A stretch of 64,000 nucleotides of DNA from an uncultured Acidobacteriota bacterium (GCA_963713825.1 CAVQNG010000014.1:54366-118365); one strand, 5' to 3'. Positions 31,308 to 58,886 are shown, numbered from the stretch's first letter. Numbers and translations: made by a program. The notes: generated by a model from the sequence alone, not told the origin.

Positions 31308-31371
31308 AGACTGCCTTACGACCCTGAGATGAGTCGTGTTTCACTAACTACTCGGGACTATTGCGACGAGG

Positions 31372-32427
31372 CTAACCAGGCCGAAGTGTCGCCGGTTTCA
31401 AAGCAGTCGAGGAATACCCGTCATCGGCAGTCCTGAATTGATGGACACCCAGCTTTTGCCGTCGGCCCGAGATCAAAAGATCCCTTTTCCAGTGGCGGTA
31501 ACGAGGTACCCACCATGAGCCTCCAAGTCGTTGATCTGCGATGTCACCGGACCCTCGAATCTCTGCCATTGAGCGAAGACAAGAGACGACGTCGACGCCA
31601 AAAGCACGGCTCCAAACACAAGCGCCGGCAGGGACCCCAACCGAACCCCCAGATCCGAAGGTGCGAAGCTGAAACCTGCGAGGCCCGAGACCAGAGATCT
31701 CAGGATGGACGGCTACCACTCCACCATTTCGATCGCACCTCCGTCCAGGAGTTGGGCTGTCGCGTTCGCAGCGGTGGATGGAAATTTGCCTTTGTGAGAA
31801 ATGGCAAGGCATGACCCCCTTCCTGGCATACGAGAGAGGAATCCGTGGATCGCGAAGACCACGTAGGGGCCAATCTCGACCGTCCCGCTCGACCGGAATC
31901 TCTGGTAGGACGTCCGCGGCTTCAAATGGATCGAACACCCCTTCCAGAGCCTGTGTCAGCTTCATGGGAAAACGAGCTTCGAGATCCTTGCCAAGAGGAA
32001 CCTGCGTCACGTCACCCGCCGCCATGAGGAGCGTCTCACCGCGGATCAAAGAGATGGCAAGATCAGCGGAAGACGATCTCGAGAGGTGAATCAGGTCGCC
32101 TGGTTGGCGGGCAGACATCACCTGCGTGTCGACGAAGAAGGATGCCGATGCGACCGACGCCAAGTGGCGACTTGGTGCGGTCAGCTTGATTCGACTTCGT
32201 AGAATATTGGGAAGCCAAACTCCTCGATCCCAGCCGGGGTTCGGCGTGGGGCCAGCGTCCTCGATTTGCATGTGAGGGGTATGCCCTACAAGGCGATGGT
32301 CCTGAAGCTTGCGCCCTGAGAGTTTGACGAGGTAGGTCAGCCGGGCCTCACACGACCCGCCCGAGTTTTCCCAATCCACAGGTATCTCGGCAACATAGTC
32401 GAACGTGCCACTGATGAGCATGACCAT
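31372..32427 (-). CDS. Hypothetical protein; boundaries doubtful, distal half reads through a repeat element
   Basis: The first ~190 codons have protein-like composition (MVMLISGTFDYVAEIPVDWENSGG...SLIRGETLLMAAGDV). The remainder is Arg/Gly-rich and overlaps repeat A at 31622-31880. Confidence 0.25.
   Translation of the reverse strand: MVMLISGTFDYVAEIPVDWENSGGSCEARLTYLVKLSGRKLQDHRLVGHTPHMQIEDAGPTPNPGWDRGVWLPNILRSRIKLTAPSRHLASVASASFFVDTQVMSARQPGDLIHLSRSSSADLAISLIRGETLLMAAGDVTQVPLGKDLEARFPMKLTQALEGVFDPFEAADVLPEIPVERDGRDWPLRGLRDPRIPLSYARKGVMPCHFSQRQISIHRCERDSPTPGRRCDRNGGVVAVHPEISGLGPRRFQLRTFGSGGSVGVPAGACVWSRAFGVDVVSCLRSMAEIRGSGDIADQRLGGSWWVPRYRHWKRDLLISGRRQKLGVHQFRTADDGYSSTALKPATLRPG
31622..31880. 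repeat. Repeat A: degenerate tRNA-Arg 3'-half homolog fused to a ~190-bp shared sequence
   Basis: gcgccggcagggac..ccgaacccccagatccgaag matches the 3' half of the tRNA-Arg at 58887-58931. The following ~190 bp are shared only with repeat B (48172-48404), e.g. ggctaccact..accatttcgatcgcacctcc and ggaatccgtggatcgcgaagac.acgtaggggcc. Confidence 0.55.
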
Positions 32428-32849
32428 GGTTCACCTCTATAGCTGTGCTGTCAAAAAGGAGGGTTGATGTAGTCGCTGAGCCGTGCCGCTCCCTTCAGTA
32501 CTCCAACCCGATTCGCAGCATCAGGCGGCGGGGTTTGACCCACATTCTGGGCACGAACTCGTCGCCTTCATTGAGCACGTAGTCACCGAACTGGACAACC
32601 GCAGAGCTGTTGAGCAGGGATCTCGAAAGAACCGAAGAAAAGACTTGACAAGATTTTCGCGTCATTTTTCGGAGCCTCTGAGGTCGACCCTTGAAAGAGT
32701 CTGTGTGGCCCTGGGTGACTTCCTGCGTGGCGTACCTCGCGATGCGTGACGAAAATGCCTCGAGGCCCCTCGATCGTGCGCCAGAAGACATCCTAAAGCG
32801 TTGAAAATAGTAGGTTTATAATGGTGCGTGACTCCTGGAGAGAACGCTC

Positions 32850-34172
32850 ATGATCGAACCTATTGCTACCCCGACTACGAAATCACAACTCGGCCCTGGA
32901 ACTTCGGAGGTCGACCAGCTCGGCGATCGAATCGCCGAGCTCTCGGCCCAGATCCAGGCTGCCACCTACCACCTGCTGGTCCTGATCCGGGAGTTCGACG
33001 AGAAGAGCGGTTGGAACACCGGCTTTCGCTCCTGTGCCCATTGGCTCAACTGGCGCACTGGGCTCGACCTGGGCGCGGCCCGGGAGAAGGTACGAGTGGC
33101 CAAGGCCCTGGGCGAGTTGCCGCTTCTTTCCGAGGCGATGGGTTGTGGGGAGCTCTCCTACTCCAAGGTCAGGGCCCTGACCCGAGTGGCGACCCGTGAG
33201 AACGAGGCGGAGCTCCTCGAATTCGCTCGGGCTGGAACGGCCGCCCATGTGGAGAAGCTGGTGCGGGCCTGGCGCCGTGTCGATCGGCAGGACGAGGTCC
33301 ACCGAGAGAATCTACGTCACGCCAGCCGCTACCTGGCGGCCACCACGGATTACGACGGCATGATCGTGCTACGGGCACGATTGGACCCGGAAGTGGGAGC
33401 CGCTCTGCTGAAAGCTCTGGAGGCAGCCGAGCAGGTGCTCTATGACAGAGAGCGGGAGACCAAGGACGAGCGAGGCGATGGAATCGCGGTCCGCCAGCGA
33501 CGAGCGGATGCCATAGGTCTTGTCGCCGAAAGTGCGCTGGATGGCGGGATGGACCAAGGAACTCGGGCCGAGCGCTTGCAGGTGGTGGTGCATGTCGACG
33601 AGGAGGTTCTGGCCGATCCGCAAGCCGCAGGGGTGTCCATGCTGGAGGACGGCACAGACGTTTCCGCGGAAACGTCCCGGAGGCTCTCCTGCGATGCCGG
33701 CAAGGTGGTCATGAAACACGATTCCGAGGGCAATATCCTCGATGTCGGCCGTCGAACTCGCACGATTCCCACCCCGATTCGCCGCGCTCTGACCGCCAGG
33801 GACGAAGGCTGCCAGTTTCCGGGCTGCGGATTGAAGCATTGCGAGGCTCACCACCTCAAACACTGGGCCGACGGAGGAAAGACCAGCCTCGAAAACCTGG
33901 TTCTGCTGTGTCGCCGTCACCATCGCGCCGTGCACGAAGAGGGATACCGCATCGAGCACATTGGGGATGGCGGGCTGCGCTTCTTCCGACCCCAGGGCTG
34001 GGAGATTCCGAGCGTTCCTCCGCCACCACCCCTGGTCGAGGACCCCTTGGCGGAGCTCGAGAGCCTGCTCGACGAGGAAGACATCTCGATCGACTCCCAC
34101 ACAGGGTTTCCGCGCTGGCAGGGAGAGCGACTCGACCTCAACTGGGCGGTCCAGGGCTATCGACAGCTGTGA
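32850..34172 (+). CDS. HNH endonuclease, DUF222 (REP13E12-type) family
   Basis: N-terminal DUF222 region. C-terminal HNH motif EGCQFPGCGLKHCEAHHLKHWADGGKTSLENLVLLCRRHHRAVHE. An AT-rich TATAAT-containing stretch lies 28 nt upstream. Confidence 0.8.
   Translation: MIEPIATPTTKSQLGPGTSEVDQLGDRIAELSAQIQAATYHLLVLIREFDEKSGWNTGFRSCAHWLNWRTGLDLGAAREKVRVAKALGELPLLSEAMGCGELSYSKVRALTRVATRENEAELLEFARAGTAAHVEKLVRAWRRVDRQDEVHRENLRHASRYLAATTDYDGMIVLRARLDPEVGAALLKALEAAEQVLYDRERETKDERGDGIAVRQRRADAIGLVAESALDGGMDQGTRAERLQVVVHVDEEVLADPQAAGVSMLEDGTDVSAETSRRLSCDAGKVVMKHDSEGNILDVGRRTRTIPTPIRRALTARDEGCQFPGCGLKHCEAHHLKHWADGGKTSLENLVLLCRRHHRAVHEEGYRIEHIGDGGLRFFRPQGWEIPSVPPPPPLVEDPLAELESLLDEEDISIDSHTGFPRWQGERLDLNWAVQGYRQL
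33658..33675. repeat. 18-bp perfect palindrome ACGTTTCCGCGGAAACGT (copy 1, inside the HNH ORF)
   Basis: Exact palindrome. The same core recurs at 34182-34197 and 35071-35088. Confidence 0.5.
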
Positions 34173-34181
34173 CGGACCCGG

Positions 34182-34246
34182 CGTTTCCGCGGAAACGTCT
34201 GCGCACCCTCCTCAGGGCGCCCGAATCGGCTGGCACCGTTCCCGAT
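34182..34246. repeat. Repeat unit: palindrome core CGTTTCCGCGGAAACG plus downstream CGAATCGGCTGGCACC box
   Basis: Lies 10 nt after the HNH stop. Both sub-motifs recur at 35041-35165. Confidence 0.5.
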
Positions 34247-34253
34247 CCCCGAG

Positions 34254-34592
34254 TCACAGCGCCAGTACCAGGCGAATACCCTCATCAATGCGAGTCATCG
34301 CTTGGGTTGTCAGGCGACCGACCGGTTTAGAGAGAAAGGAGCGGTCGAGTGTGAGCAGCTGCGACACATTCACAACCGAGTCCTTGGGGAGCCAGCTGGT
34401 CTTCTTCTTCAGCAATACGTTGCCGGGAGAATCTGCCAGGCGTAGGTTCGATGTAATGACCGCGACGACAACGGTCTGAATCCGGCTGGCATTGAAGGCG
34501 TCGGATTGCACGATGAGGACAGGCCGGCGAAGCCCAGGGCCAGAGCCCTGAGGCCGGGGGAGTGAGGCCCACCGGATCTCCCCCCGCTGCAC
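34254..34592 (-). CDS. Type II toxin, MazF/PemK/Kid-family mRNA interferase
   Basis: MQRGEIRWASLPRPQGSGPGLRRPVLIVQSDAFN...VVAVITSN follows the PemK/MazF fold pattern (RG-I/V-W..L.P..G.E...RP.LIVS). The start shares 1 nt with the antitoxin stop. Confidence 0.75.
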   Translation of the reverse strand: MQRGEIRWASLPRPQGSGPGLRRPVLIVQSDAFNASRIQTVVVAVITSNLRLADSPGNVLLKKKTSWLPKDSVVNVSQLLTLDRSFLSKPVGRLTTQAMTRIDEGIRLVLAL

Positions 34593-34828
34593 TACCAGTC
34601 CTCGGAATCCAGCGTAGCGAGTTGCAGGGTGTCGAGGATGGGATCGACTCGCGCTGGCTCGTCGCTGTAGATCTGGTTGAGACTCTCGGTGACTTCAAGG
34701 TGTTGATGCTCGGCCACGAAACACCGAACTGCCGTGGCATAGAGTCGGCTCCGGGAAAGACCCAAGCGTTGGGCAAGTTGCTCGGCTGCCTCGTAGACCT
34801 GGTCAGGAATCGAGATCGCGGTTTTCAT
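34592..34828 (-). CDS. Cognate antitoxin (RHH/MazE-PemI-like)
   Basis: MKTAISIPDQVYEAAEQLAQRLGLSRSRLYATAV is an RHH DNA-binding N-terminus. Directly upstream of and overlapping the toxin. Confidence 0.6.
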   Translation of the reverse strand: MKTAISIPDQVYEAAEQLAQRLGLSRSRLYATAVRCFVAEHQHLEVTESLNQIYSDEPARVDPILDTLQLATLDSEDW

Positions 34829-34833
34829 GTCTA

Positions 34834-34855
34834 TAGTATAACCAAAGTTATACTA
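34834..34855. promoter_or_regulatory. Perfect palindrome TAGTATAAC-CAAA-GTTATACTA immediately upstream of the antitoxin start; candidate operator
   Basis: 9-bp arms, 6 nt upstream of the ATG at 34828. AT-rich. Confidence 0.4.
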
Positions 34856-35040
34856 ATGAGTCAGTGATGGAGCTGAGCTGATCCGACAGCCTGGAATCGA
34901 GCCGGGAAACAGTACCCCGGAGCTTTCTAGATCTTGGTCTATCTGTATGGAGCTTCGTTACGCTTCAGGTTGTGGATCGTCAGGAGTCCACCCTGACACC
35001 CAGTCGTAGCAAAGGCCTGTTGATATCCCCGAACCGTCGC

Positions 35041-35165
35041 AGAATCGGCTGCCCCCTATTCGCAGTTCCGACGTTTCCGCGGAAACGTCTTCAGGCGGGG
35101 GCAAACCCCGCCCCTGCTCTAATACCCACCCCTGCGCCTAAATTCGAGATCGGCTGGCACCCACC
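35041..35165. repeat. Repeat unit copy 3 (AGAATCGGCTGCCCC, palindrome ACGTTTCCGCGGAAACGT, CGAGATCGGCTGGCACC)
   Basis: Shares both sub-motifs with 34182-34246. Together the copies bracket the MazEF pair. Confidence 0.5.
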
Positions 35166-35450
35166 TAGTAACCCAACTAGTACGGGCAGTGGCGAAAGGG
35201 GAGAAACAGTGCACGAAGGCGTGAGGATGCGAACCAACCCCTTGGTCCACTCCTGGTCCATTTCGGTGGAACTTGTGGACGGTTCCCGAACTATCAGTAA
35301 GTCCTTCCGATAGGTTTCCGTGACAAGGGGAGGTATCTCGGAGCCACGCGAGCGACTCGTGAATATTGAGATGACTGTCCCGATAGTTCAGACTAGGAAG
35401 ACAAGGCTGGGCGCAAGTGCCGCCACTCAGAAACAGCCTGTGAGAGCTTT

Positions 35451-36641
35451 CTATTCCACTGTATTCGACCACGCCGAGGTGTCGCCGGACTCGAAGCCGT
35501 CTCTGAATAACAGCTGAGGGGTCATGTCTCCGAGGGCAACGTGATATGTGTCGTTCTCGTCGGAGCTAAGATCGGTACAGCTGAATCCACCCAGGCCATC
35601 TCCGAGACACAACCGATTCCGCGCCTGGTAGTTCCCGAAAACAGCATCGAGGTATTGATCGTCGTCGACGTAGCTTAGAGCGACACCAAGAGAGTCGAAC
35701 TCGTCGGTACTGACATCGCCGCAGGTGAAGTGCCCGGCTCCATCTCCGAGGCACACTCGATTTCGACCGAAGGCGACCCCGAACACGGCATCGAGGTTCT
35801 GATCGTCGTCGATCAACCCCAAAGAAACTCTCGTGTGGAAGTGTTCGTCCGTGCTGACATCGCTACAAGTGAAGCCGCCCAGGCCATTGCCAATACAGAC
35901 GCGGTTGCGTTGTTCTTTGTTGGCGAAGACGGCATCGAGAATCTGGTCGTTGTCGATGTAGCCCAGAGCAACGCCAGTCGAGTAGAACTCGTCGCTACTG
36001 ACATCACTGCAAGTGAAGCCACCCAAACCGTCCCCAAGGCAGATGCGATTGCGCGGCTGACTCGGGAAACCAGTACCCCAGACTGCAAAGACGGCGTCAA
36101 GGACCTGATCGTTGTCAACTAGGCCCAGCGCAACATCTGTGGCACCAACGATGTCGGTGCCAACGTTGCTGCAGGTGAACTGTCCGGCTCCATCTCCGAG
36201 GCATACGCGATTCGGCGTGGCCGCATTGTGACCTCCAATGATGGCGTCGAGGTGCTGATCGCCATCAATAAGTCCGAGCGCCACGCCGGATGAGCCTTCT
36301 GCTACAGTATCGACATAACTGCAAGAGGAAAATCTCCCCAAGCCGTCGCCAAAGCAGACACGGTCGCGTTGATGTGCGCGATTGGCAAACACAGCATCGG
36401 GGTGCTGATCGCCATCCACGAGGCCGAGCGCAACCGTCCCGCCAGCGTCCTCGTCATCGCTGACATCACTACACATGAACCCTGCACCACCGTCGCCAAG
36501 GCAGAAACGATCTGGAGATCCCCAGACCGCAAAAACAGCGTCTAAGGATTCACTCGCCGACACCGCCCCGGCACCGACCATTGCTGACAAAAGCACAATC
36601 AGTCCGGCACAGACTTTCAACCTCTCTCTCATCTCGAACAT
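35451..36641 (-). CDS. Secreted FG-GAP / VCBS-type repeat beta-propeller protein
   Basis: Signal peptide. About seven repeats of D.DQ.LDAVF...NRVC.GDG.G.F(T/S)C.DVS.DE. Confidence 0.75.
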   Translation of the reverse strand: MFEMRERLKVCAGLIVLLSAMVGAGAVSASESLDAVFAVWGSPDRFCLGDGGAGFMCSDVSDDEDAGGTVALGLVDGDQHPDAVFANRAHQRDRVCFGDGLGRFSSCSYVDTVAEGSSGVALGLIDGDQHLDAIIGGHNAATPNRVCLGDGAGQFTCSNVGTDIVGATDVALGLVDNDQVLDAVFAVWGTGFPSQPRNRICLGDGLGGFTCSDVSSDEFYSTGVALGYIDNDQILDAVFANKEQRNRVCIGNGLGGFTCSDVSTDEHFHTRVSLGLIDDDQNLDAVFGVAFGRNRVCLGDGAGHFTCGDVSTDEFDSLGVALSYVDDDQYLDAVFGNYQARNRLCLGDGLGGFSCTDLSSDENDTYHVALGDMTPQLLFRDGFESGDTSAWSNTVE

Positions 36642-36865
36642 CCTTTCCGCATGTGGATCGGGGGAATTCCCGGCCGGCCATATCGATAGGCACTTCGGCC
36701 CCTCCTTACAGGAACGGTGATCCGGTGATTCGGCCCTGAGCTATTCCGGGTGTGCCTTCGTCGAAGCACTTTCACTGTCTCCGCTAATAGAAGGCCCAAG
36801 CGGACAGATTTGTTACCCCCAATTGACGGGGGCGCTCTCCGGGCCTGACCGTCTGAGGAAGGGAT

Positions 36866-39628
36866 CTAGAACTCAACCCTCAAGCCCAGCTCGTAGCGGC
36901 GGGGGAGCTGCCATTCGGTGGCGTCGCCTTGCTCGTACTCGCCACAACCGCTGACCCGGCCGCAGATGTCGGTAGCGTTCTCCGAGTCGAAGAGGTTGAG
37001 GACCGTTCCGATCAACCGTAGGCGGGTGCGCCCGAGGTTGAAATCCTTGGAGAGCTGGACGTCGAGCTGGCCCCACTCGTCTCCTTCACGGCTACCACGG
37101 GGCTCGACAAGAATGTTGCCCCAGGCACCTGGATCGACGGTGGCCGCAGGACGGACCGGGGTCCAACGGAAAGGCGACCCCCAGACTCCGTTGAATCCGA
37201 TGCCGAAGTCCAGCGGCAAGAAGACATAACCGCTCGCCTTCAGTCGGTGCTTGCGGTGATAGCCGAGATAGCCGTCACGATTCGTGAAGTGGTAGGGATA
37301 CAGATCGAAATCGGTCGACGCGATATTGCTGTGAGTCGAGCCTTCGGAATTGGAGTTGGTGTACGAGGCCAGCACGTGGAGGCGATCCAGCGCTCGGCTT
37401 TCGAAGCTCAAGAGCCATCCGGTGTAGTCGCGACGAGCCTGGGGAAGATTGGCGATGATGAATCCAGTGCAACTGGTACCGGTTGTAGGTGTCGGGTAGT
37501 TTTCGACACAGGTGTCGTCGAACACGTCGCGTGTGGCCTTGTCGACGTAACTCAGCTCGAGAGAGGTGCGGCGGAGGAGCTCCCTTTCGAAGCCGATGAT
37601 GAAAGTATCGACGTACTGGGGTGTGAGATCGGACGCGATGACAGAGGGCTCTGACCCGACGGTATTGAAGAGTAGCCATCCCGCAGGATCCCAGTGGTTG
37701 GGATCAAAACGCCATTCCAGACCCTGGCTTGCACCCACTGCGGCGCACACCTCGGGATCAGTCACCCCCACGATGGTCGTGCAGGAGCCCCAGATCCTTC
37801 CGGTCTCCACCGCGGTGATCGCCGCGCGCGGCAACTGAAGGAAGCTCGAGTGCATGAAGCGGCCCCCCGATGCTCGAAGAAGATTGCGTCCGTTCCGCGT
37901 CAGGTCCCAGGTGACCCCGAGGCGGGGCTGGAGCATCTGGAGATCCGCCACCTCCTGCCCTATGTCGTTGTCGTAGATCGCGCGGTCCCAGCGAAGCCCG
38001 AGCTGAAGCGTGACATCCGGCCGCACACGCCAGGAATCCTGAACGAACAGGTCGGTGATCGAGCCCGTCGTTTCATAGGGTCCCGAAGGCGACAGGGCCT
38101 GCATCAGGTACGGAATGCTGGTGCCGGAAGCGGATAGATCACCGTACTGGTAGCCTTCCTCGCCTTGCCGACAGAGCCCTCCGCCCTGGATTCCGGTCCA
38201 ACACGTATTCCGGTCTTGGGAGGTTTGGTGAATTTCGCCCCCAACCTTGATGTCGTGGCTGCCCAAGGCTTCATCCACGAACCAAGTGAAATCAGTGCCG
38301 ACCTGGTCCCGTCGGATGCCTGTGGAGCGGAGCGTCAGATAGTTGCCGGTTATGAGTCCGGTGTCGAGGTTGTAGTGCTGTATCAGGGAGTTGTCACCGC
38401 TCATGGGGCCCAATTCGTCATCGACCCAGTCCGAACCGATGTGCATCTCCCAGAGGAGGCTTCGCGCCAAGACCCCGGACACCTCGGCCTGGAAGAGGGT
38501 GTAGGGACGTTCCCAGCGACCCGTCGCCTCGGCAGCCGTGAATGTCCCGGAACCCGCATTGGTACTCTCAAAAGGGGTTCTGAGGTACTTTGCCTGGACC
38601 AACCAGTTCGGAGCCGCCTGACCGGTGATCTTGATGAAGGCCGGGGTGCTTGCCTGTCGCTCCGTGGTGGGGGAATCGAGCCAGGTCCAGCGGTAGTCGT
38701 GCGACTCGAGCGAGCCGAAGAACCAGGCTCGGTCGCGAACGAGGCGGCCACCGAGGGTGACGCCCGCGATGCTCGTGCTCGAAGTCTGTTCGTCGGGATT
38801 GTAGTGATCCCCAGAGGTCTCGAGGTTGTTGTCCGTGTAGCGGATATCGACTGCTCCCGACCAGGCATTGCTGCCGGACTTCGTCAGCGCATTGATGACC
38901 CCACCCGTAGCACGTCCAAACTCGGCTTGGAAGCCTCCCGATTCGAAGGCCACCTCCTGGATGGCGAGGGTTGGGTATCCCACCTGAGGGCCACCCCAGC
39001 TCGGGCTCGTAGCATCGAGGCCGTCGATCAGGAACACGTTCTCTGACCCAGTAGACCCTAAAACGCTCTGGGTGAAGTAGAAACCAGACTCTCCCGCCGG
39101 AAACGTGGAGCCGGTCCCAGCCGCCTGCAGAATCAGCTGTATGTGCGAATAGCGAACGCCTAGGCCGACCGCTGCCTCCTGGATGAAGTCGTTGGTGAAG
39201 CTCTGCCCCGTGGACACTCTCTGAGGATCCACTACGGGTGTCGTTTCGGTGACCGTGATCTCGTCCCCATATCTGGCGAGCGGCAGGACGACCCGCACCT
39301 GAGCCATGCGCTCCAGGCGCACCTGGACCTCGGTGAGCTCCTGGGTGTGGAAGCCGTCGAGCTCGAGGCGCACGGTGAAGTACCCGGGGCTCAGACGGGG
39401 ATACTGGAACCATCCCTCGGCGTCGGTCTGGGTCGTCTGGACTCCGCCGATCTGGTTGGGAGAACTCGCTGAGACCGCGACACCGGGCAGTGGCACACCT
39501 TCCCCGTCGACTACAAAGCCCGAAAGCCGCCCCGTAGTTCCAGCGTGAACGGGTTCGGCCAGGGTCAGAACTACAGCAGCCATTGCGATGATCAGGCATG
39601 CGGATGGGACAGCAGCTCCCGCTTTCAT
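36866..39628 (-). CDS. TonB-dependent receptor with N-terminal carboxypeptidase-regulatory-like domain
   Basis: Start MKAGAAVPSACLIIAMAAV with a GGAAGGAGAG RBS. CarboxypepD_reg-like segment (GRLSGFVVDGEGVPLPGVAVSA...DAEGWFQYPRLSPGYFTV). Plug and 22-strand barrel, with a terminal aromatic (...LGLRVEF). Confidence 0.85.
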   Translation of the reverse strand: MKAGAAVPSACLIIAMAAVVLTLAEPVHAGTTGRLSGFVVDGEGVPLPGVAVSASSPNQIGGVQTTQTDAEGWFQYPRLSPGYFTVRLELDGFHTQELTEVQVRLERMAQVRVVLPLARYGDEITVTETTPVVDPQRVSTGQSFTNDFIQEAAVGLGVRYSHIQLILQAAGTGSTFPAGESGFYFTQSVLGSTGSENVFLIDGLDATSPSWGGPQVGYPTLAIQEVAFESGGFQAEFGRATGGVINALTKSGSNAWSGAVDIRYTDNNLETSGDHYNPDEQTSSTSIAGVTLGGRLVRDRAWFFGSLESHDYRWTWLDSPTTERQASTPAFIKITGQAAPNWLVQAKYLRTPFESTNAGSGTFTAAEATGRWERPYTLFQAEVSGVLARSLLWEMHIGSDWVDDELGPMSGDNSLIQHYNLDTGLITGNYLTLRSTGIRRDQVGTDFTWFVDEALGSHDIKVGGEIHQTSQDRNTCWTGIQGGGLCRQGEEGYQYGDLSASGTSIPYLMQALSPSGPYETTGSITDLFVQDSWRVRPDVTLQLGLRWDRAIYDNDIGQEVADLQMLQPRLGVTWDLTRNGRNLLRASGGRFMHSSFLQLPRAAITAVETGRIWGSCTTIVGVTDPEVCAAVGASQGLEWRFDPNHWDPAGWLLFNTVGSEPSVIASDLTPQYVDTFIIGFERELLRRTSLELSYVDKATRDVFDDTCVENYPTPTTGTSCTGFIIANLPQARRDYTGWLLSFESRALDRLHVLASYTNSNSEGSTHSNIASTDFDLYPYHFTNRDGYLGYHRKHRLKASGYVFLPLDFGIGFNGVWGSPFRWTPVRPAATVDPGAWGNILVEPRGSREGDEWGQLDVQLSKDFNLGRTRLRLIGTVLNLFDSENATDICGRVSGCGEYEQGDATEWQLPRRYELGLRVEF

Positions 39629-39653
39629 CGAGGCTCTCCTTCCAGGTACAGCA

Positions 39654-42600
39654 TCAGGGCCACTCGGGGATCGCGGCCCAGCCGGGGAAGGGCGCGTAGC
39701 CGAGCTTCCAACCAGTCGGGGAGTCGGAATTTTCGACGACTCGAACGTTGGTCCGCGAATGGAGCTCGGCGAGCAGCTCATCATGTGGCAGGGTGTGAAG
39801 GGGTGGTTTAGACATGTCCGGAAAAGGCCAGACTCGCACAGTCCGGTCGTCGCCTACCGAGGCAATCCAACGACCGTCGGGAGACACCGCGATGGTTCGA
39901 ACGAGGCCCCGATGGCCGATTAGTAGGTGCGGTTCCTCTCCCGATACCGGGCCGACTCGCAAGGGACCGTCCAGCCCCCCACTGATGATCCACTGGTCAG
40001 AAGGATGGAGGGCGATCCGGAAGGGGTCTGGATGGGTGTCGAGGCGACGTGTCTCCCTCCCGTCGAGGCTACTCCAGGCAAGGTGGGACCGGAGATCCTC
40101 GGTGCTGTAGGCGTCGCCGTCCCAGTGCACGTCTATTTTGAATTCACCGTTGGAACTGAGTGCCCGTGTCGCGACCATTCCCTCTTCTGCCACTACCTCG
40201 ACACTGTTGTCTTCAAGATCGAAGACTCTCTCTCCACCCGTAGCGCCCGGGACGACCCCCGCGGCCCCGACCCAGCGGAGCCTTCGGTTGTCATCGAAGC
40301 GGAGAAAGGAGGTGCTACCAGGGACCGGTCCCAGTACCTGGACCTTGTTCGTCAGCAGGTCCCAGACACGTATGACCATCTCTTCTGCTGCGCCGTTCAT
40401 CAAGGCGGAAGCTAGTAGACGGCCGTCAGGGCTGAAGTCGAGCTCCATGCCGTAACGACCCCGTCCTGGCCACTCGGCGGGCATCTCTCGAACTTCTCCT
40501 CCCTCGAGCGGAACGATCATCACCGTGGACCAGCTCGAGACCGCCACATTTCTTCCGCTCGGATCGAAGGCCATCGAGGTGAAGCCTCTGAGCCTCTCAT
40601 CAGTGAGCACGCGCATCTTGCCCTCGTTCTGACCTTCGAGCGGCCAGGCAAGCAATCCGTCTCGTCCTACCGATAGCAGAAGCCAACTTCCATCTGGGCT
40701 GAACTGCAGATCACCCGCATTGCCTTCGAACCCATGAAACACAGATCGAGATCGACTGGGCAGGGGCCAGAATGCAGCATTGCCAAGGTAGGCAGAGACG
40801 ACCATCCGGCCACTGGGGTGCAGGGCGACACCGTGTGAAAAGACCTCGTCTGCCTTGCGGAGAACCAGGGGTTCAGCGGCAGGAGGTGCGCTCAAGTCCC
40901 AGAGGCGCACCGAGGCGACGCCTTGCTCCATTCCCCTGAAACCCAGCCACCTTCCGGTCGGGCCATACCCGACCCGGGACCGCACCACGACCCCCTTGAG
41001 GTTGCCCATTGCCAGGGTTCGGAGCGGCCGAGTTGATTCTCCTTCGAGTGACCAGATCTTCAACTCTCCCAACTCATCTCGTGCCGCCACTCGATCCCCT
41101 AAGGGGTGAAACGAGAGCTCCAGAACCTCGGCCGGGTGCTGGCCGACCTGGCGGGGCGCCCGCATCCACTCGTCGAGCGAGCGAATGAAGACCCGGTCCT
41201 GCCTGTTGTAGGCCATCCTCGAGCCGTTGGTGTCGATGTCAAAGGCATTGCCCCAGGCCGGCATACTGCCGATCAGCCGCGACTCACCTTCCTCGTAGGG
41301 CCACCAGCGAATTTCTGCCACCTCCTCATCCACCGAAACGCTGTAGTAACCATCGCCGCTCGGAGCGTGGAGTTGTCCCCGGCTGTCTTCGGCACTGCGA
41401 AGTTCCCTTCCCTCGGGAATGGAGAACCAGCGGAACTCACCCTGCTTCTCGATAATGACCAGGTCATCGAGCGGGAACGCGACTGCCGGTGGATACAGCT
41501 GATTCGGATAGTTGACAAGAGTGATAGCTTCCTTGCCATCTTCGGGAAGCACGGTCACCCTGTCCCACCCGTTGATCGCCAGCCACTCCCCGCTCGGGCT
41601 GAACACGAGGCCAGAAGCCCGAGACTCCTCGTTCGCCGGAAGTACTGTTGCCGGGGGAGCCATCTGGAGCGCACGCAGGGCGAGCATGCGCCCCTCCTCG
41701 GTGTCGAAGACCTCGAGGCTCTTGGTCGCCCAGGCGAGTGCGGCGGTCGGATATCTGTCGATCTCGAGCTCGCCCAGGGCCAGCAGGCGACCGGATTCCG
41801 CCCGGAGACGTTCCTGCTCAGCCCGATGCCAGAAGCCAGCGACAATGGTCAGACCAACAAGGAGAAGAGTAATGACCGTGGTGACCGCAATTCCTTTCTG
41901 CCGCCTGCGGCGCTCAGCAAACGAGGTCATCGCCCTCGCGAAGGCCTCCTCGGTATCCGTCAGTCCACCTGGGTAACGCTCGCGCCAAAGCTCGTACTCC
42001 TTGAATGCGTTCCCGGTCCAGAGATAGTCCTCGGAGCGGCGGTGCTCCTCCCAGATCCGGGCCTGGCTGCGAAGCTCGTCGCGAAGCTGTGCTCCTTCGG
42101 CGTCTTGTGTCTGCCATCGCACCAGCCGCGGCCAGTTTGAAAGCAGGGACTCGTGGATGATCTCGATGCGGTGGTGCAGCCCACCGCCTTCCTCGTCGGC
42201 AGGGACCTCGAAGGAGGTGAGGAGGCGAGCGTCGATGAGGGTGGACAGGACGCTCGCCGCTGCGCTGCGAGACCCCGCGCCAGCGGTGCCCTGTTTGTCG
42301 AAGACCGAGAACAGCTCCTGGCGGTCTCGAGAATCGCGGGTGCCCTCGGCGGTGACGAGATTGCGAAAGATCTCACGCACAATCGGCACGTTGGCTTCGC
42401 CGATGTAGTCGAGAGTCGCCTCCGCATGCTGAGCCAGGGCCCCACTCACGCCGCCGATTTGGTGGTAGCTCTTGCGAGTCAGGAGTCCGGTCTCGCGGTC
42501 GCGGCGGTCCCAGAGCTGGGCGGCGGCAAACGCGAGCAAGGGCAGGGCACCACGCTGGCCTTCGATCTCGCCCAGCATCTGCTCCACGATTCCTTCGTCC

Positions 42601-44210
42601 TCGAAGCCGTAGCCGCACCGCAGGGCTGGCTCGACCAGAGCCCGCCGCAGAGCTGCCCCGGTCGGAGCACCCAGGAGTGTCAGATCCGTGAGGATAGGCC
42701 GCAAGGCCTCGAAGTGATGACAATGGAACAGAAAATCATCCCGCATCGAGAGCAGGACGTGAATGTCGACTTCGAGGGGCAATCGACCCAGCACATCGGC
42801 GAACGATGACTGTACTATTGCAGTGTTCTGGGTGAAGAGCTCTTCGAATTGATCGACGATGAGGAGCGCGTGCGTGTGACTTCGACGCCACTCGGTCAGC
42901 AACTCGACCGCGACGTCGGGATCCTCGAGGTGTTGCAGGAGGTAGCTTGCGCTCGGCACATCGCGTAGCTCCACGGGCAGTGCTCGAGCGAGGTGGTCGA
43001 ACGGTCGGTTCCCTGGAGTCATCACGAGCGCTTGCCAGCCGTCGATCAGCGTGGGTAGCAAGCCCGCCCTCAGGAAGGAACTTTTTCCAGCACCTGAAGG
43101 CCCGATGAGAGCGAGCAGATGAGGCCGCCTAAGCTTCTTCCACAGCGATTCGATTTCCAGCTCTCTGCCGTAGAAGTGATCCGCATCCTCCTCTTGGAAG
43201 GCTGCCAATCCCGGATAGGGGCGGGCCTGTTCGTCACCGACGGCTCGTAGAGTCACCTCCTCGAGGGCTCTGGCCAGCTCTGCCGCGCTCGAGAAGCGTT
43301 CGCCGGGAGCCGGCGTAGCACACCGACGAATCACGCGTGACCAGGGGGTCTCGGTCACATGGGGTCCTTCCTGATGGAGTGCCTCCCAGATCGCTTGTCG
43401 ATCCTCGAAGGTCTTGACCCCATGCGGTTCAACCATCTCCGCCAGAAGGATGCCGGCTGAGAAGACATCCGAGCGGGCATCCAGATCGGCGCCCCGGGCT
43501 TGCTCGGGGGACATGTAGGGCGGTGTCCCGGCTACGAAACCACTTCTGCTGTCGCCAAGGCCTTTGGTGATGCCGAAGTCCATGACGACGACCCGGCCGG
43601 TGCGGGTCATCATGACGTTCTCGGGCTTGATGTCGCGGTGCACGAGGCCGGCATCGTGAATCGCTTCCAGTCCCGCCAGGAACTGCGAGGCGATCTCTCG
43701 GGCTTCAACGAGGTCCAGGGGAGAGCGCTCCTCGAGAATCTCCTGGAGCGTCGTCCCATCGATGTACTCCATCAGCACCAGCTCCTGGCCGTCGAGTTCC
43801 TCGAGATCGTAGACGCGGCAGACGTTGGGTGAGATCACTCGGCGTGCCGCTCGGACTTCCTTGCGCAGGGCCTCGAGCGCTTCCCTGTTCTGGATCAGCT
43901 CGGGGCGCAGTGCTTTCAGTGCCACATCCTGACGGAGCTTCAGGTCGTAGGCTCTCCAGACGTCACCCATGCCGCCTCGCCCGACAAGCGAGCGAAAACG
44001 GTAGCGACCGCCGAGGACTCGGCCTTCCTGGAAGGTGTCGCCTGGAGGGAGGTGCTCTCGGTCTACTTCCGACTCCGCCAACACCTCGGCCTCGATAGAG
44101 GTGTCGTCGAGTGCCATCGAAAGAAGGCAGCTCGGGCACAGTCCTTCGCTACCACCCTTCCTCGAAAGGGGTACCCCACATGTCGGGCACTGGACCGATG
44201 CGGCCTTCAT
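39654..44210 (-). CDS. Multidomain Ser/Thr protein kinase: Zn-ribbon, Pkinase, nSTAND P-loop NTPase, TM helix, WD40-type beta-propeller
   Basis: Start [16 protein letters not shown]...CPSC with a GGAGAG RBS. Kinase motifs [12 protein letters not shown] and [23 protein letters not shown] followed by [14 protein letters not shown] (Walker A). One TM helix ([19 protein letters not shown]). C-terminal WD40/PQQ-like repeats. Confidence 0.85.
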
Positions 44211-44287
44211 GGTCTCTCTCCCATCCTCGGCCGTGGGCATCCACGGTCGTCAGGCTCGAGAGAAATAGACCGAAGCCAGGCTAGGTG

Positions 44288-45016
44288 TTACTTCACTTGG
44301 CCTGACTGGGGTTTCACGACTTCCAGGAGATGCCGAATCTCATCATCGACATCATCGGGGTCGGCGACGATCTCTGATATTTCGGTGCGCAGGCACTGGC
44401 CGAAGCGCTTTCGAAGGCGGTGGACGGCGGTTCTCACCGCCCCTTCGTTCATACCCAGGGCATGGGCGACCTGGTTGTAGGGTGCCTGAGGCTCCGCGCT
44501 GGTCAGGTACTGCCTGAGCAGTTCGAATTGGTTCGGATCGCCGTAGGCATTTGACTGATCGCGTAGGCGATCCATAGCGCGGTCGAGTACAGTCAACGCC
44601 CAACCCTCCTCGAAGACTTCCTCCGGTGTGCGACTGGCAGGCTCGCCCTCGTAGAACTCCTCAGCGACGTCGGTGGCCAGAGACAGTACCCGGGTCCTGC
44701 CACCACGCTTGAGAGTTCGGTCCCGTCTTCGCTCGTGTGCGAGGAAGTGACGGAGAGATGCCAGCAGGAAGGAGCGAAATCGACCTTTCGACGGATCGAC
44801 GTTAGCCAGGAGATCCTTCTCCATGAGCTCTGTGAAGAAGCCTTGCGTCAAATCCATGGCTTCGTCGGGACTCGAGCCATGGTGCCGGATATAGGCGTAG
44901 AGGGGCTGCCAGTAGGTCTGGCAGAGGCTTTCCAGGGCCGCCCGCGCTTCCGTGTCGGAACCGTCTCTGGCGGCGAGTACCTGGCTCCACTGAGTCGTGG
45001 CCACCTTGCCGCTCAT
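44288..45016 (-). CDS. ECF-type RNA polymerase sigma-70 family factor
   Basis: Region 2 (DLTQGFFTELMEK...FRSFLLASLRHFLAHERRR) and region 4 HTH (QVAHALGMNEGAVRTAVHRLRKRF). Directly upstream of the kinase on the same strand. Confidence 0.8.
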   Translation of the reverse strand: MSGKVATTQWSQVLAARDGSDTEARAALESLCQTYWQPLYAYIRHHGSSPDEAMDLTQGFFTELMEKDLLANVDPSKGRFRSFLLASLRHFLAHERRRDRTLKRGGRTRVLSLATDVAEEFYEGEPASRTPEEVFEEGWALTVLDRAMDRLRDQSNAYGDPNQFELLRQYLTSAEPQAPYNQVAHALGMNEGAVRTAVHRLRKRFGQCLRTEISEIVADPDDVDDEIRHLLEVVKPQSGQVK

Positions 45017-45335
45017 GCTCCCTCCCGTAGGAGCAACCGAAACAACAGTCTGGACGAGCTCGCACCGCGAGGCCGTCCGCAGAGTCAGCTTGGTTCTTCG
45101 GACCCGTCAAGAGTACAGGAAGTCCTTTCAAGAAGCACTACCTGTCGAGGTAGGAATAGGTACGTCCTTGCACCGACAAGGGGGTGACCGATGGTTCTAG
45201 TTGCTCGGAGCAGCGCCGGCGGTAGCGGCCTCGTGGTCTAGTGCCATGTTGGTGACGTAGGTTGTGGTTGACAATTCCGGATCATGGCACTGCCGCCGCT
45301 ACCGCCAGTGTACTCGTGAGTGAATGCCCGCCGCC

Positions 45336-46283
45336 TCAGTCGGAGGGTGATCGACAATCGCCGTCAAGAGGCTTCACGTCAGCGTCGTGTACAGAGAAAC
45401 AGCTTGGCGTGGTGGCCCCTGCCACAGCACCATCCAGCTGCGAATGGAGCAGGGACGCGACCCCGTAGTTGCAGATCCCTCCCCTGATCTCCGAGCTTCG
45501 GACTGTCATTGAGCCAAGGGTCCCAACTGTAATCGCACAGGCTTCTCCGAGAACTGAAGTCCGCTGCAGCCCAGTCAGGCCGTAGCCCAGGATGCCTTGT
45601 GATCCTGGGCCGTCGGCAACGATTATCGAGTTCCTGACTTCGAGAACTGACTCGGCTGAAAAAGCGACGATGCCGTAGGAGCCGCGTTCATCGCTTGTGG
45701 CCAGCAGCGTGACGCCATCTAGGACCGCCGTTGATCTGGCGATTCTGATACCAGAGCCCCAGCCTGAGGTCGGAGCGATCTCAATCGTCACATGCTTGAG
45801 GTATGTTGGTCCCGCGTACCAGATTTCGATACCCCGTGGTTCGTGGCCCGAGGCTCTGATCGTGACGTCAGAAACGGATGCGGATTGACCGGAGCCTACC
45901 CACAGGACCCTCTCGCAGGAAGCGGCACCTTCGAGGGTGAGTGATCGGAGCTCCGCGTGACTGGAACCGCTGATGGCGTAGTCTCTACCTGAGACGATTT
46001 TCGTCAATGCCTCGCCTGCGCCCTCAATGTCAACGAAAGGCTTCATGTCGATTTGTTCTTCATAGACCCCGGGTGCCACGTACACCAGATAGGGGTTGTC
46101 CTCCGTCGCATCTGTGATGCTGTCGAGTGCCGCTTGTATGGAGTGGAAGGCTGCACCGTTCTTTGCTACCTGGATGATGTTGTTCGTGCCGCCCCACTTG
46201 TTCCAGAGCTGTCCTTCGACCGTCGCGGCACGGAGGAGCAGCAGAGTAATGACGATCCCTGTCCTCAGTCGATGGTGAATCAT
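45336..46283 (-). CDS. Secreted right-handed beta-helix (pectin-lyase-fold) protein, pectinesterase-like N-terminus
   Basis: Signal peptide. IQVAKNGAAFHSIQAALDSITDATEDNPYLVYVAPGVYEE resembles the CE8/pectate-lyase N-terminus. Gly/Ser-rich beta-helix turns. Confidence 0.6.
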   Translation of the reverse strand: MIHHRLRTGIVITLLLLRAATVEGQLWNKWGGTNNIIQVAKNGAAFHSIQAALDSITDATEDNPYLVYVAPGVYEEQIDMKPFVDIEGAGEALTKIVSGRDYAISGSSHAELRSLTLEGAASCERVLWVGSGQSASVSDVTIRASGHEPRGIEIWYAGPTYLKHVTIEIAPTSGWGSGIRIARSTAVLDGVTLLATSDERGSYGIVAFSAESVLEVRNSIIVADGPGSQGILGYGLTGLQRTSVLGEACAITVGTLGSMTVRSSEIRGGICNYGVASLLHSQLDGAVAGATTPSCFSVHDADVKPLDGDCRSPSD

Positions 46284-46343
46284 GATCTGTCCTCCTTCGC
46301 TGTGATCGGTGCTGATTGGGCACGACGAGATAAGCTAGCATCC

Positions 46344-47303
46344 TCACTCGAGAATTGGCTGACAATGCTCGTCCAGAGCGCTCATTTTGGGGCCGCAGGT
46401 GGAGAAGCAGGAGACACTGTCCCCAGACACATGATCCGTGAGCTCCGAGTGGGAGATTGCAACGTCCTCCCCGAGCCCGGTGGCAATCGCTCCACTGATC
46501 TCTGAATGCTTTATCTTCAGCGCCCCATAAGACCCGACGGCCCAGCTGTCTCCAGCAACCGTCACATGCTTCAGAACGGCCGACGAGCCTCCGGCGAAGA
46601 CGCTGATGGACGCCGGTTCACCCTCGACGACAATGCTCGAATTCGTCATCTCGAAGTCGTCCCGAAGGTAAACACCGGTGTTGGTGCATTCGTCATTCGC
46701 AACCAGCATCGAGAGGTCGTCAAACAGCAGAACAGGCGTGCAGCCCAACATGCATCTGCCAAGAATGCCGTTGCCACGACACAGGCCTGACTCCGGAGTT
46801 GGGACTACCGCTACCGTCACGTCCTTCAGAGTCAGATCTCCGCAACAGGTACCAATGCCGGTGGCCCATCTGCCGGACGCCTTGATGGTGACGTGAGTGA
46901 TCTTCAGAGCAGCCCGGTTGTCGATCGCGGTGCAGCTGTCGATTCCGGTGCATTCAACAGTCAGCGATCGCAGCGCCGCGTCGGCGCCCTTGAGGGTTCT
47001 TGGCCCCGCGGAGACAATCCTCGTAAGGTGCTCGCCGGCGCCCTCGATGTCCACGAAGTGCTTCATGACGACCCGCCCTGCGTAGACTCCGGGTGCTACG
47101 TACACCAGATAGGGGTTGTCTTCACTTGCATCCGTGATGCTGTCCAGGGCGGCTTGAATGGAGCGAAAACCCCGGCCGCTCTTGGCGACGATGACGATTT
47201 GATCGGTCATGCCCAATCGGTTCACCAGCTGCCCATCGGCGTTCAGGGCGCCGAGCAGCAGCAAGACAGTGAAAGCTACGATGAGTGATCTGTTCTGGGT
47301 CAT
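46344..47303 (-). CDS. Secreted right-handed beta-helix protein (paralog of preceding gene)
   Basis: Start MTQNRSLIVAFTVLLLLGALNA (ATG, 15th codon of the track ORF). Shares IV.AK.G..F.SIQAALDSITDA.EDNPYLVYVAPGVY and HVDI.GAGE..T.IVS with the neighbor. Confidence 0.6.
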   Translation of the reverse strand: MTQNRSLIVAFTVLLLLGALNADGQLVNRLGMTDQIVIVAKSGRGFRSIQAALDSITDASEDNPYLVYVAPGVYAGRVVMKHFVDIEGAGEHLTRIVSAGPRTLKGADAALRSLTVECTGIDSCTAIDNRAALKITHVTIKASGRWATGIGTCCGDLTLKDVTVAVVPTPESGLCRGNGILGRCMLGCTPVLLFDDLSMLVANDECTNTGVYLRDDFEMTNSSIVVEGEPASISVFAGGSSAVLKHVTVAGDSWAVGSYGALKIKHSEISGAIATGLGEDVAISHSELTDHVSGDSVSCFSTCGPKMSALDEHCQPILE

Positions 47304-47651
47304 ATTGGCCCTCCTTCCTGGTCGTCCACTAGAAGAAGGCCGCAACCAACAGATTCGTTACACCCCGGTCAACGAAGTTGCCCCGCGGACCAACGCACTG
47401 GAAGCAAGTGCGCGCCACCACGAACAATCGCGCCGGCTCATCGGGTCAGACAGATCGAGAGGCGAGGACAGAAGTCCTCTTCGGGACTCTAGTTCGGGCG
47501 AAGTCGGCACCGAACCGGTCCTGTGGAGCTTCCTGGAAGGGTCGGCGGCGCAGCAGAACCGCCGGCTGGCTCAGGGCTTGGGGGATGGAGCCGTTTCCCG
47601 AAGTTTCCGTTCAGCGAGGGTGAGAAGGGAAGTTCAAGATCGGAATCGAGA

Positions 47652-48053
47652 TCACCGTTTCCGCAGGACGCTCTCGAGGCTCCAGATCCCAGACCCCTTG
47701 GTGGCGATGTACAGAAACAGGAACGCGTAGAGGGCAGCCAGCTCTCCCCGATTCTGGATGGGAAGGGGACCTTGGGGTTGGTGCACGAGGAAGTAGGCGA
47801 AAGCCATCAGACCGCTGGCGAGAAATGCAGCCCAGCTCGTCCCGATACCCAGCAGGATGGCAAGTCCACCAACCAGCTCGATGATGCCAGCCACCCCTCC
47901 TCGTGACACGAGCTCGACCGTTCCGCCGTCTCCGCCCGCCCCGCCGAATAGGCCGAGGAGCTTCTGCGCACCATGGCAAAGAAAGAGAAATCCAGCCACG
48001 ATCCGCAGCATCGCATAGGTCTGGTCCGAGTACTTTCCGAGGAATCTCTTCAT
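47652..48053 (-). CDS. DoxX-family membrane protein
   Basis: Start MKRFLGKYSDQTYAMLRIVAGFLFLCHGAQKLLG with a GGGAG RBS. Four TM helices. The longer track ORF is a read-through across repeat B. Confidence 0.75.
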   Translation of the reverse strand: MKRFLGKYSDQTYAMLRIVAGFLFLCHGAQKLLGLFGGAGGDGGTVELVSRGGVAGIIELVGGLAILLGIGTSWAAFLASGLMAFAYFLVHQPQGPLPIQNRGELAALYAFLFLYIATKGSGIWSLESVLRKR

Positions 48054-48171
48054 TTTCGACTCCCTGATCTCTTCTACTCCTACCTTGTTAAAGTCCGCCC
48101 CCAGTTTCCCATAAGTGACCGGGAGGTCCAACCAGTTGCTGCTCAACCGAATGGTGTGAAGAGGTCTCGAC

Positions 48172-48404
48172 TGGCGCGCCGGCAGGGACTCGCTCCTGGG
48201 TGTGGTGGGCGGGTGTGGACGGCGACCAAAGGGAGCCACACCCTGAACCCCCAGATTCGAAGGTGCGATGCTGAAGCCTGTGAAGCAGTGAGACCGGAGA
48301 TCGTCGGGTCCACGGCTACCACTGGACCATCTCGATCGCACTCCTCCCTGGTATATCTGCAAGGAATCCGTGGATCGCGAAGATGACGTAGGGGCCGAGC
48401 TCAA
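48172..48404. repeat. Repeat B: tRNA-Arg 3'-end homolog with a 53-bp insert, fused to the same ~190-bp sequence as repeat A
   Basis: tggcgcgccggcagggactcg is identical to the tRNA-Arg 3' end. After an insert it continues aacccccagattcgaag and then the A/B-shared sequence. Confidence 0.55.
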
Positions 48405-48461
48405 TCGGGCCTCGACAGCGAAATTGGCGCTGGCGATCGAAAATCTACGTTGACAGCCGTG

Positions 48462-56550: not shown

Positions 56551-57037
56551 CGAGTGCCTCGATCACGTAATCGTCCTTGGAGAGGCACATTCGCGCCACG
56601 TCCTCGGCACCCACTTCGCCTACTACCAGCGCTCGAGAATCCACCTCTTCCTGAACAAAGATGCTCCCAACCCGACAGACATCCAGCCACCGGCGATGGG
56701 TGAGGTCATCGAGCTACCCGAAGTCGGTGGGCTCCATCATCGCTACGAACGCCGGGCGGCCTGACCACTGGACCGCCTCTCCGAGATCAGCGCCCTCTAG
56801 CCCGCCCCAAAGCTGGACCGCTGCGCCCGAGCCCCGAACGCGGCCCGCAGAAGTCACCGCTCCGACCCTGGCACGGGCCAGTCGGCGTGCGCCCATCGAA
56901 GGATCGGAGCCCAATCCCGCGCATAATCGGCCAGACGGGGTTTACGATACGGACAAGGAGATTGCACATACCAATGGACCGTGGATGGACCATGTGAGCT
57001 GGAGGTGTCTAGTGTCGCCACTTGACCTTACGGCAAA

Positions 57038-57105
57038 TGTCCTGTTTTGAGGGAGTTGCTTGGCGCGCCGGCAGGGACTCGAACCCCGAACCCCCAGATC
57101 CGAAG
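57038..57105. repeat. Direct repeat of the tRNA-Arg 3' half plus ~20 nt of trailer (att-like)
   Basis: 45 nt (tggcgcgccggcagggactcgaaccccgaacccccagatccgaag) are identical to 58887-58931. The preceding gttttgagggagttgc resembles the tRNA trailer gtttgagggagttgag. Confidence 0.7.
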
Positions 57106-57171
57106 CAGGGGGGTTCAGGGACTTCTCAGAAGGTTCTCTTGAGCCCCTGGGACCGTTTCGGCAAAGCTGAG

Positions 57172-57693
57172 CTAGGGCTTCCCGCCGTCAGAAACTCGGA
57201 AACCCAGAGGATTCAGTAGTAGTTCAGGTGCGACGACCTCGGGTTGCTTCATGTCGAGCGGTCTACAGGGCGAGTGGGCCAGGAACAGCGACAACTCGAG
57301 CAGAGTCATTTCGGGCTCGGTGGCCAGAATGTCCCTGGTCATGTGGGTGAAATCGGTCATCGATCCAAGCACCACGCGGCTGTTTGTCCGTCCGTAGTAC
57401 ATTGGATCCATCAGGGACAACTCGCGATCGATAGCCTCTTGCGGAACCTTCAGCGCGAGGAGCACGTCTGTGAGAAGTCTCAGGAATCGCTTTTCAAAAT
57501 GGTCGAGATCCCGAGCTGTCGTGACGATCGGGAGCAGGGACCGCTCGCTGACCAGGATTAGAAAGTGCCCCTGCGGGGTGTAGACGATGTTTGCGAACCA
57601 ATCTCCCAGCCGATTCTCTGGAGGGGGCGGCTCGCCTGGATCTCGGATTCCCAGCCGTTTGAGGAGCTTCGCCGTGCATCGAAGGGTCGTCAT
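57172..57693 (-). CDS. Hypothetical protein (islet cargo)
   Basis: 173-aa ORF with balanced composition and no recognizable motifs. Confidence 0.4.
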   Translation of the reverse strand: MTTLRCTAKLLKRLGIRDPGEPPPPENRLGDWFANIVYTPQGHFLILVSERSLLPIVTTARDLDHFEKRFLRLLTDVLLALKVPQEAIDRELSLMDPMYYGRTNSRVVLGSMTDFTHMTRDILATEPEMTLLELSLFLAHSPCRPLDMKQPEVVAPELLLNPLGFRVSDGGKP

Positions 57694-57758
57694 GGTTCTT
57701 CCTCGTCCAATGCAGATGGGGGCAGAAAGCCGTGCCTGATGAAGAAGCCTCCTGGGAA

Positions 57759-58783: not shown

Positions 58784-58886
58784 CGCAATCCCTGCCTGCG
58801 CACCAATAGCGCACCAAATCGCCGATTTGGGGGTCTGAGGCCGACTCCAAGAATCGATGTAAATGTCTTAGTTTGAGGGAGTTGAG

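Follow-up and report, generated by a model that had tools for sequence, protein, structure and literature searches.

Below an intact tRNA-Arg(TCG) gene in a 64,000-nt stretch of DNA from an uncultured Acidobacteriota bacterium (GCA_963713825.1, CAVQNG010000014.1:54366-118365; hereafter the window, in whose coordinates positions are given) lie two degenerate copies of the tRNA-Arg 3' half, copy A (31622-31660) and copy B (48172-48262), each joined to the end of the same hypothetical gene, here called X. The two copies are very likely decayed scars of mobile-element insertion into the tRNA-Arg gene that, with their attached X ends, form paralogous modules: an alpha module beside a CPBP gene and a beta module beside a DoxX gene. 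They are an ordinary two-copy genomic scar and not a new repeat family. A first-pass annotation of the window, which had offered relic attachment (att) arms of older integrations as one reading of these copies, was essentially right in this respect: the fragments are co-oriented, lie downstream of the tRNA, start at the anticodon loop and stand in a variable region.

The tRNA-Arg(TCG) gene (58887-58963, minus strand; identified by ARAGORN and, with 68.3 bits, by the Rfam tRNA model) is the one intact tRNA gene of the window and the putative integration target, on the attL side; it is in synteny with the tRNA-Arg of two contigs, L018 and L019, from metagenome-assembled genomes (MAGs) of Thermoanaerobaculia. 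The 18-mer CTTCGGATCTGGGGGTTC, which starts in the tRNA-Arg anticodon loop and has a chance expectation of ~0.08 matches, was used as a probe. Its minus-strand sites are 58914 (the tRNA itself), 57088-57105 (0 mismatches), 48245-48262 (1 mismatch) and 31643-31660 (0 mismatches); the last two confirm the pair of degenerate minus-strand 3'-half copies in the first-pass annotation. The site at 13748, considered as a fourth relic, has 3 mismatches and falls inside a PIN/VapC-type open reading frame (ORF), and was set aside as a chance match.

The three 3' fragments (57061-57105, 48172-48262 and 31622-31660) all share the minus strand, and thereby the orientation, of the intact tRNA-Arg and lie on its downstream side. 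Their boundaries are of att type: the halves begin with CTTCGGA in the anticodon loop, a 22-nt 'quarter' begins in the T-loop, and intact examples of the fragments end in CCA. The youngest scar, of attR type, is a 71-nt direct repeat of the tRNA 3' region (57035-57105, minus strand; 93% identity over 71 nt to its partner at 58861-58931), and consists of a perfect 45-nt half (57061-57105) followed by 26 nt of imperfect downstream flank.

Copy B (minus strand) is a composite relic, delimited by alignment with the related loci L020, L015_R2 and the end of L019. It contains a decayed 3' half of about 45-46 nt (~48217-48262), a linker of ~22 nt and a second, 22-nt fragment that runs from the T-loop to CCA (48172-48193); as previously noted, its 3' end (48172-48192) comprises 21 nt identical to the tRNA 3' end, CGAGTCCCTGCCGGCGCGCCA. 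The 53-bp palindromic insert formerly placed in this copy is resolved by the four-way alignment into decayed T-arm/acceptor sequence, the ~22-nt linker and the second tRNA fragment. The half-linker-quarter arrangement is intact in L020 (JBATEX010000069.1); in L004 and L015_R1 the half/quarter pair is reduced to a single perfect half. The quarter would be the scar of an older event with its crossover in the T-loop, and the half that of a later event with its crossover in the anticodon loop; classes of crossover sublocation within tRNA genes were reportedly described by Williams in 2002.

On the upstream side of copy B, a 53-nt non-coding spacer of beta type (48263-48315, minus strand, by alignment), 85-89% identical to the spacers of L004, L015_R1, L016 and L008, separates the tRNA fragment from the stop codon of a gene X remnant (48316-48440, minus strand). 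This X-beta remnant was recognized by six-frame translation, protein alignment and tblastn with residues 186-216 of P0001, the closest homolog of X. What is left of the gene is its last ~42 codons (…RQRQFRCRGPIELGPYVIFAIHGFLADIPGRS/AIEMVQW*); 26 codons are deleted in frame and a start codon is missing. The remnant is 93.7% identical to the X gene of L008 and abuts the end of an AcrB-type gene. On the other side lies the DoxX gene (47652-48053, minus strand; Pfam DoxX), which in all relatives examined is conserved as the flank downstream of the beta tRNA relic. Since the real start of DoxX is at 48053, copy B, 119 nt upstream, is intergenic; the 250-aa 'DoxX' ORF (47652-48404) is an artefact that over-extends a 133-aa gene.

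Copy A (minus strand) is a 39-nt half, 90% identical to the tRNA by blastn over 41 aligned columns, with a 2-nt deletion, two substitutions and loss of the terminal GCCA. It is preceded by a 52-nt spacer of alpha type (31661-31712, minus strand; 85% identical to that of L009 and 73% to that of L015_R2) and by gene X alpha (31713-32427, minus strand), which was delimited by the homologs of a chimeric query (described below), tblastn in two frames and protein alignment. X-alpha has its full length, but near codon 181 a deletion of ~31 nt disrupts it and shifts the frame; the 3' end of this copy accounts for most of the 190 bp shared with copy B. A 351-aa ORF at 31372-32427 (deposited as P0002) is an artefact that joins the frameshifted X to an out-of-frame read-through across the tRNA relic. 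Copy A lies 315 nt upstream of the start of the CPBP (Rce1-like) gene and forms the 3' end of another (pseudo)gene. The earlier placement of the two copies in the 5' regions of the DoxX and CPBP genes is thus abandoned for both.

Two gene remnants accompany the alpha module. On its upstream side a gene for an outer-membrane beta-barrel protein, Z, survives as its final ~37 codons (32495-32605, minus strand; translation …LNEGDEFVPRMWVKPRRLMLRIGLEY*); in L015 this peptide forms the end of Z and is found again at about 4200-4318. Z matches OMP_b-brl_4 and precedes X in the gene order of relatives. The 972-aa outer-membrane protein of the window was considered as the Z ortholog and rejected as a distant paralog, with only 25% identity. 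Downstream of copy A are the last ~20 codons of an M28 peptidase (31358-31420, minus strand; 87.5% identical by blastn to L020 2768-2839), whose peptide RVFLDCFETGDTSAWLASSQ* compares with the M28 C-terminus of L020. A full M28 gene stands directly after DoxX in that related MAG; the remnant marks a deletion or replacement beside copy A and places the alpha module in a region where an ancestral gene was replaced.

The sequence common to both modules lies upstream of the two tRNA fragments on the minus strand and comprises about 170-190 bp at ~80% identity; it aligns in blocks of 112 nt (79.5%) and 60-82 nt (74-82%), split by a 78-nt gap in copy B. It occurs nowhere else in the window, where tblastn likewise detects no third copy. 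The ~190-bp shared segment of the first-pass annotation is therefore real and confined to these two places in the window, but it is not an anonymous repeat. Both copies have a common minus-strand frame, …IE(I/L)GPYV(V/I)FAIHGFL..(M/I)PGR…AIEMV(E/Q)W, with a TAG stop in the identical position; differences between A and B fall mostly at third codon positions, and past the stop the two are less alike and differ by an indel. A chimeric query, made of the N-terminal 183 residues of the 351-aa ORF and the C-terminal peptide from the other frame, retrieves 13 protein clusters among 5.8 billion, nine of them full-length (237-261 aa) and aligned over at least 95% of the query; the best, P0001, is 81% identical over 100% of the query. 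Because frame and stop are conserved and the chimeric query has full-length homologs, the shared segment represents a real gene's 3' end: the last ~42-68 codons of the ~250-aa hypothetical gene X, its TAG stop and the 52-53-nt spacer.

Gene X has no Pfam family, and the 351-aa ORF likewise has no Pfam match. An alpha/beta-hydrolase fragment, suggested by the …FAIHGF… motif, was rejected: there is no Pfam match, and the homologs form a distinct family. X is found at 4 loci of the Joint Genome Institute (JGI) metagenome collection and in no viral contigs, and a search of genome contigs with P0001 gives no match; near the distant homologs (36-48% identity) no tRNA fragment is present. The alpha and beta forms of X share about 76-79% identity, and pairwise identities of the X 3' ends and spacers define two lineages that track position. 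Window copy A, L009 and L015_R2 form the alpha lineage, on the CPBP side, and window copy B, L004, L015_R1 and L016 the beta lineage, on the DoxX side; L008 is also of beta type, in another context. L008 was tried as an 'empty site' with the order X, half, CPBP, and was dropped when its downstream gene proved unrelated to CPBP.

Related loci preserve the beta module in better condition. In L004, L005 and L016 an intact X is followed by the spacer, by a 45-nt half that is perfect and ends in CCA, and by DoxX; on the far side of DoxX they share with the window a short segment and the 3' end of a DUF222/HNH gene. Among contigs of the Genome Taxonomy Database (GTDB; one genome per species), the exact 45-nt half is found in only three places, all in Thermoanaerobaculia (Acidobacteriota) MAGs. 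The junction of half and DoxX is kept in L004, L015, L016 and L020. L020, which belongs to the same MAG as L019, begins inside a tRNA fragment and has the order half end, 22 nt and 22-nt quarter; BrnT/BrnA; perfect half, 22 nt and quarter; DoxX; M28 peptidase; and onward to Aldedh. The presence of the half-DoxX junction without X in this contig indicates that the junction predates these species and is older than X.

The DNA between the repeats differs, or is missing, in relatives. L015, a 10-kb contig, has in its first part Z, an X with a disrupted 5' end, the spacer, a perfect half and DoxX, and in its second part an HNH gene on the opposite strand, the spacer with a composite tRNA relic, and the CPBP, VapBC, SDR, Aldedh and DHDPS genes. 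Its last 5.4 kb (CPBP to DHDPS) is 96.8% identical to window 31320-25865; in contrast, its X/half/DoxX/HNH part is only 80-89% identical to that of the window, which has an additional 12.4 kb between DoxX and HNH. The contrast in identity and the 12.4-kb difference delineate a variable island within a conserved core. L015 thus lacks 12.4 kb, and L020 has BrnT/BrnA instead of X. At the other end, L018 and L019 have the intact tRNA-Arg in synteny with the acyl-CoA dehydrogenase side of the window at ~82% identity, and have only about 300 nt downstream of the tRNA in common with it; in L019 a plasmid RepA_C gene and a TerB-like gene come after the tRNA-Arg. The stretch below the intact tRNA-Arg is a mosaic island hot spot.

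The explanation we favour is that the 3' end of tRNA-Arg(TCG) in this Acidobacteriota (Thermoanaerobaculia) genome has served repeatedly as an attachment site for integrating DNA. Each integration would rebuild the tRNA and displace the previous 3' fragment downstream, as is established for tRNA-targeting integrative elements, so that co-oriented scars would accumulate. Copies A and B would be two such scars, each still attached to its former island-side arm, the 3' end of an island-borne X and the ~53-nt spacer. They would then be paralogous modules and not the output of a proliferating element, with the beta module located at the ancient junction of tRNA half and DoxX. Both modules are decaying, with X-alpha carrying a frameshift, X-beta cut to 42 codons and mutations in the tRNA pieces, and they would have no present function.

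The alpha and beta modules most likely go back to a single ancestral module that was duplicated or gene-converted, and not to two independent integrations, because the same half-linker-quarter composite occurs in beta (window copy B) and in alpha (L015_R2). On this comparison alpha would have arisen by duplication rather than by a separate integration, and copy A is probably a secondary duplicate and not a scar left in situ.

Partial tRNA genes that arise when genetic elements integrate are documented (PMC9897764). The fragments described here resemble the attR-type tRNA fragments of genomic islands and prophages in being co-oriented direct repeats of the tRNA 3' end downstream of an intact tRNA, in starting in the anticodon loop or T-loop and reaching the 3' end, and in enclosing DNA that varies between relatives; they differ in that no integrase is left and that A and B are old, mutated and fused to a pseudogene. 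In tandem island accretion the tRNA is rebuilt at each integration and older 3' fragments are left downstream, and cis-mobilizable elements (CIMEs), described for streptococcal integrative and conjugative elements (ICEs), are att-flanked and lack an integrase. The loci described here share with both the presence of integrase-less segments separated by one att-like repeat (57106-58886, the BrnT/BrnA segment of L020, and the larger segments to copy B). The likeness to CIMEs is one of anatomy, namely att-like repeats and no integrase; the loci depart from them in that no cognate integrase was found, and in their host, an Acidobacteriota MAG as opposed to a Firmicutes bacterium.

Several observations weigh against relic integration scars. 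No integrase or recombinase was found by Pfam in the 64-kb window or the related loci (39 window ORFs and 19 from related loci), and as a consequence it is the anatomy of the fragments that argues for site-specific integration as their probable origin. High identity between the window and L015 has its limit at 31320, ~300 nt past copy A, and not at the end of the tRNA half. The composite relic stands at the DoxX side in the window and at the CPBP side in L015, and such a switch of sides needs gene conversion, or duplication with differential collapse. Finally, the copies were counted within 64 kb of a 347-kb contig, not genome-wide.

An alternative that retains integration is that two related elements, each ending in X, integrated successively into tRNA-Arg: copy A would be the original chromosomal half, displaced by a first element (DoxX…HNH-X), and copy B the half displaced by a second. 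The order and orientation of the parts (tRNA, half B-DoxX…X-alpha, half A-CPBP) agree with this, the X-half-DoxX arrangement of L004 and L015 has the look expected of an attP-like junction, and the 76-79% identity of alpha and beta X would suit two diverged elements. However, the L019/L020 MAG, a distant one, has half-DoxX without X and DoxX followed by M28, and an M28 remnant lies downstream of copy A, so that DoxX looks like an old chromosomal flank and not cargo; an identical half-linker-quarter composite in alpha and beta copies is not expected from independent integrations; and the lack of an integrase counts here as well. Successive integration of two elements is therefore considered unlikely. 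Quite improbable is a second possibility, in which the tRNA-Arg half repeats of these Thermoanaerobaculia act like the cassette boundaries of an array served by an integrase in trans, and small cargo units are shuffled by recombination at them. Candidate units exist in the toxin-antitoxin pairs and in the X-spacer module, whose neighbours are of at least four kinds; if this were true, X-spacer-half would be a still-mobile module and no dead scar.

The first-pass annotation had also raised a tRNA-derived repeat resembling a miniature inverted-repeat transposable element (MITE), and a possible action of the copies on the downstream genes. A non-autonomous mobile repeat of MITE type, or like a short interspersed nuclear element (SINE), spread through the genome would share with A and B a tRNA-derived sequence and more than one occurrence, and the unit of X 3' end, spacer and half does have varied neighbours: DoxX, the CPBP flank, an unrelated gene (L008) and an upstream TPR gene (L009). 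Yet the window holds just two copies, without conserved termini, and the unit is mostly the coding 3' end of a gene with conserved frame and stop. As far as these data reach, two copies lacking conserved termini is also the outcome that the first-pass annotation itself had named as contrary to its repeat family. A scan for terminal inverted repeats at either copy gave only short internal pairs and none at the repeat ends; no target-site duplications were found, the flanks of A and B being different; and X is rare, as judged by its 13 protein clusters, its few metagenome loci and its absence from viral contigs. This origin is consequently given very little credence. Hardly any more plausible is that the copies work as a tRNA-like RNA or as a cis-regulatory leader of DoxX or CPBP. 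The intergenic sequence from half to DoxX is kept across species, and CGCCGG in the L004 spacer could pair with the acceptor 3' strand, but this pairing is not kept in the other copies, which gather indels. No copy, including that of L004, is recognized by ARAGORN or the Rfam tRNA model, even at E<=10; fold energies are no better than those of shuffled sequence (z-scores -0.56 to +1.06); and a sigma-70-like promoter scan near both copies gave no matches. ARAGORN, Rfam and folding likewise led to the rejection of a transfer-messenger RNA (tmRNA), a permuted tRNA or a tRNA-like RNA for the spacer and half, and an effect on the downstream genes is not supported.

The reading of A and B as relic integration scars has consequences mainly for annotation: the two 'repeats' are to be recorded as pseudogene ends and att scars, and the 351-aa and 250-aa ORFs are mis-annotated. 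It also singles out tRNA-Arg(TCG) as a hot spot for islands in a lineage of uncultured Acidobacteriota and implies no new mechanism.

Between the tRNA and its perfect 3'-half repeat lies an integrase-less 1.8-kb cassette (57106-58886, minus strand; Pfam) that contains a RepA-like remnant (58343-58783) and genes for an MNT nucleotidyltransferase (58084-58386), a HepT toxin (57759-58097) and a DUF6933 protein (57172-57693). The DNA alignment of the window with L019 reaches 58572, where L019 has its full RepA_C gene after the tRNA; the ORF at 58343-58783 is a remnant of a RepA region of this type. The cassette, in which MNT and HepT form a toxin-antitoxin pair, resembles a CIME-like mini-island. 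A second toxin-antitoxin cassette bounded by tRNA-half repeats is the 0.6-kb BrnT/BrnA cassette of L020 (1-770), whose flanking repeats are identical over the ~70 nt that can be seen where the contig starts.

The window has further features of its own. A 29-nt motif that ends in the perfect palindrome ACGTTTCCGCGGAAACGT occurs three times: inside the DUF222/HNH gene (33648-33676), at its stop codon (34171-34199) and in the short segment downstream (35061-35089). An FG-GAP repeat gene (35451-36641) has DNA-level tandem repeats at 35550-36512 with a period of 144-150 nt. Within the 12.4 kb absent from L015, 39654-44240 encodes a 1528-aa protein with a Ser/Thr kinase domain, an nSTAND1 NTPase and WD40 repeats; two adjacent paralogs with weak pectinesterase-like matches (45336-46283 and 46344-47345), 72% identical over 253 nt, are also absent from L015.

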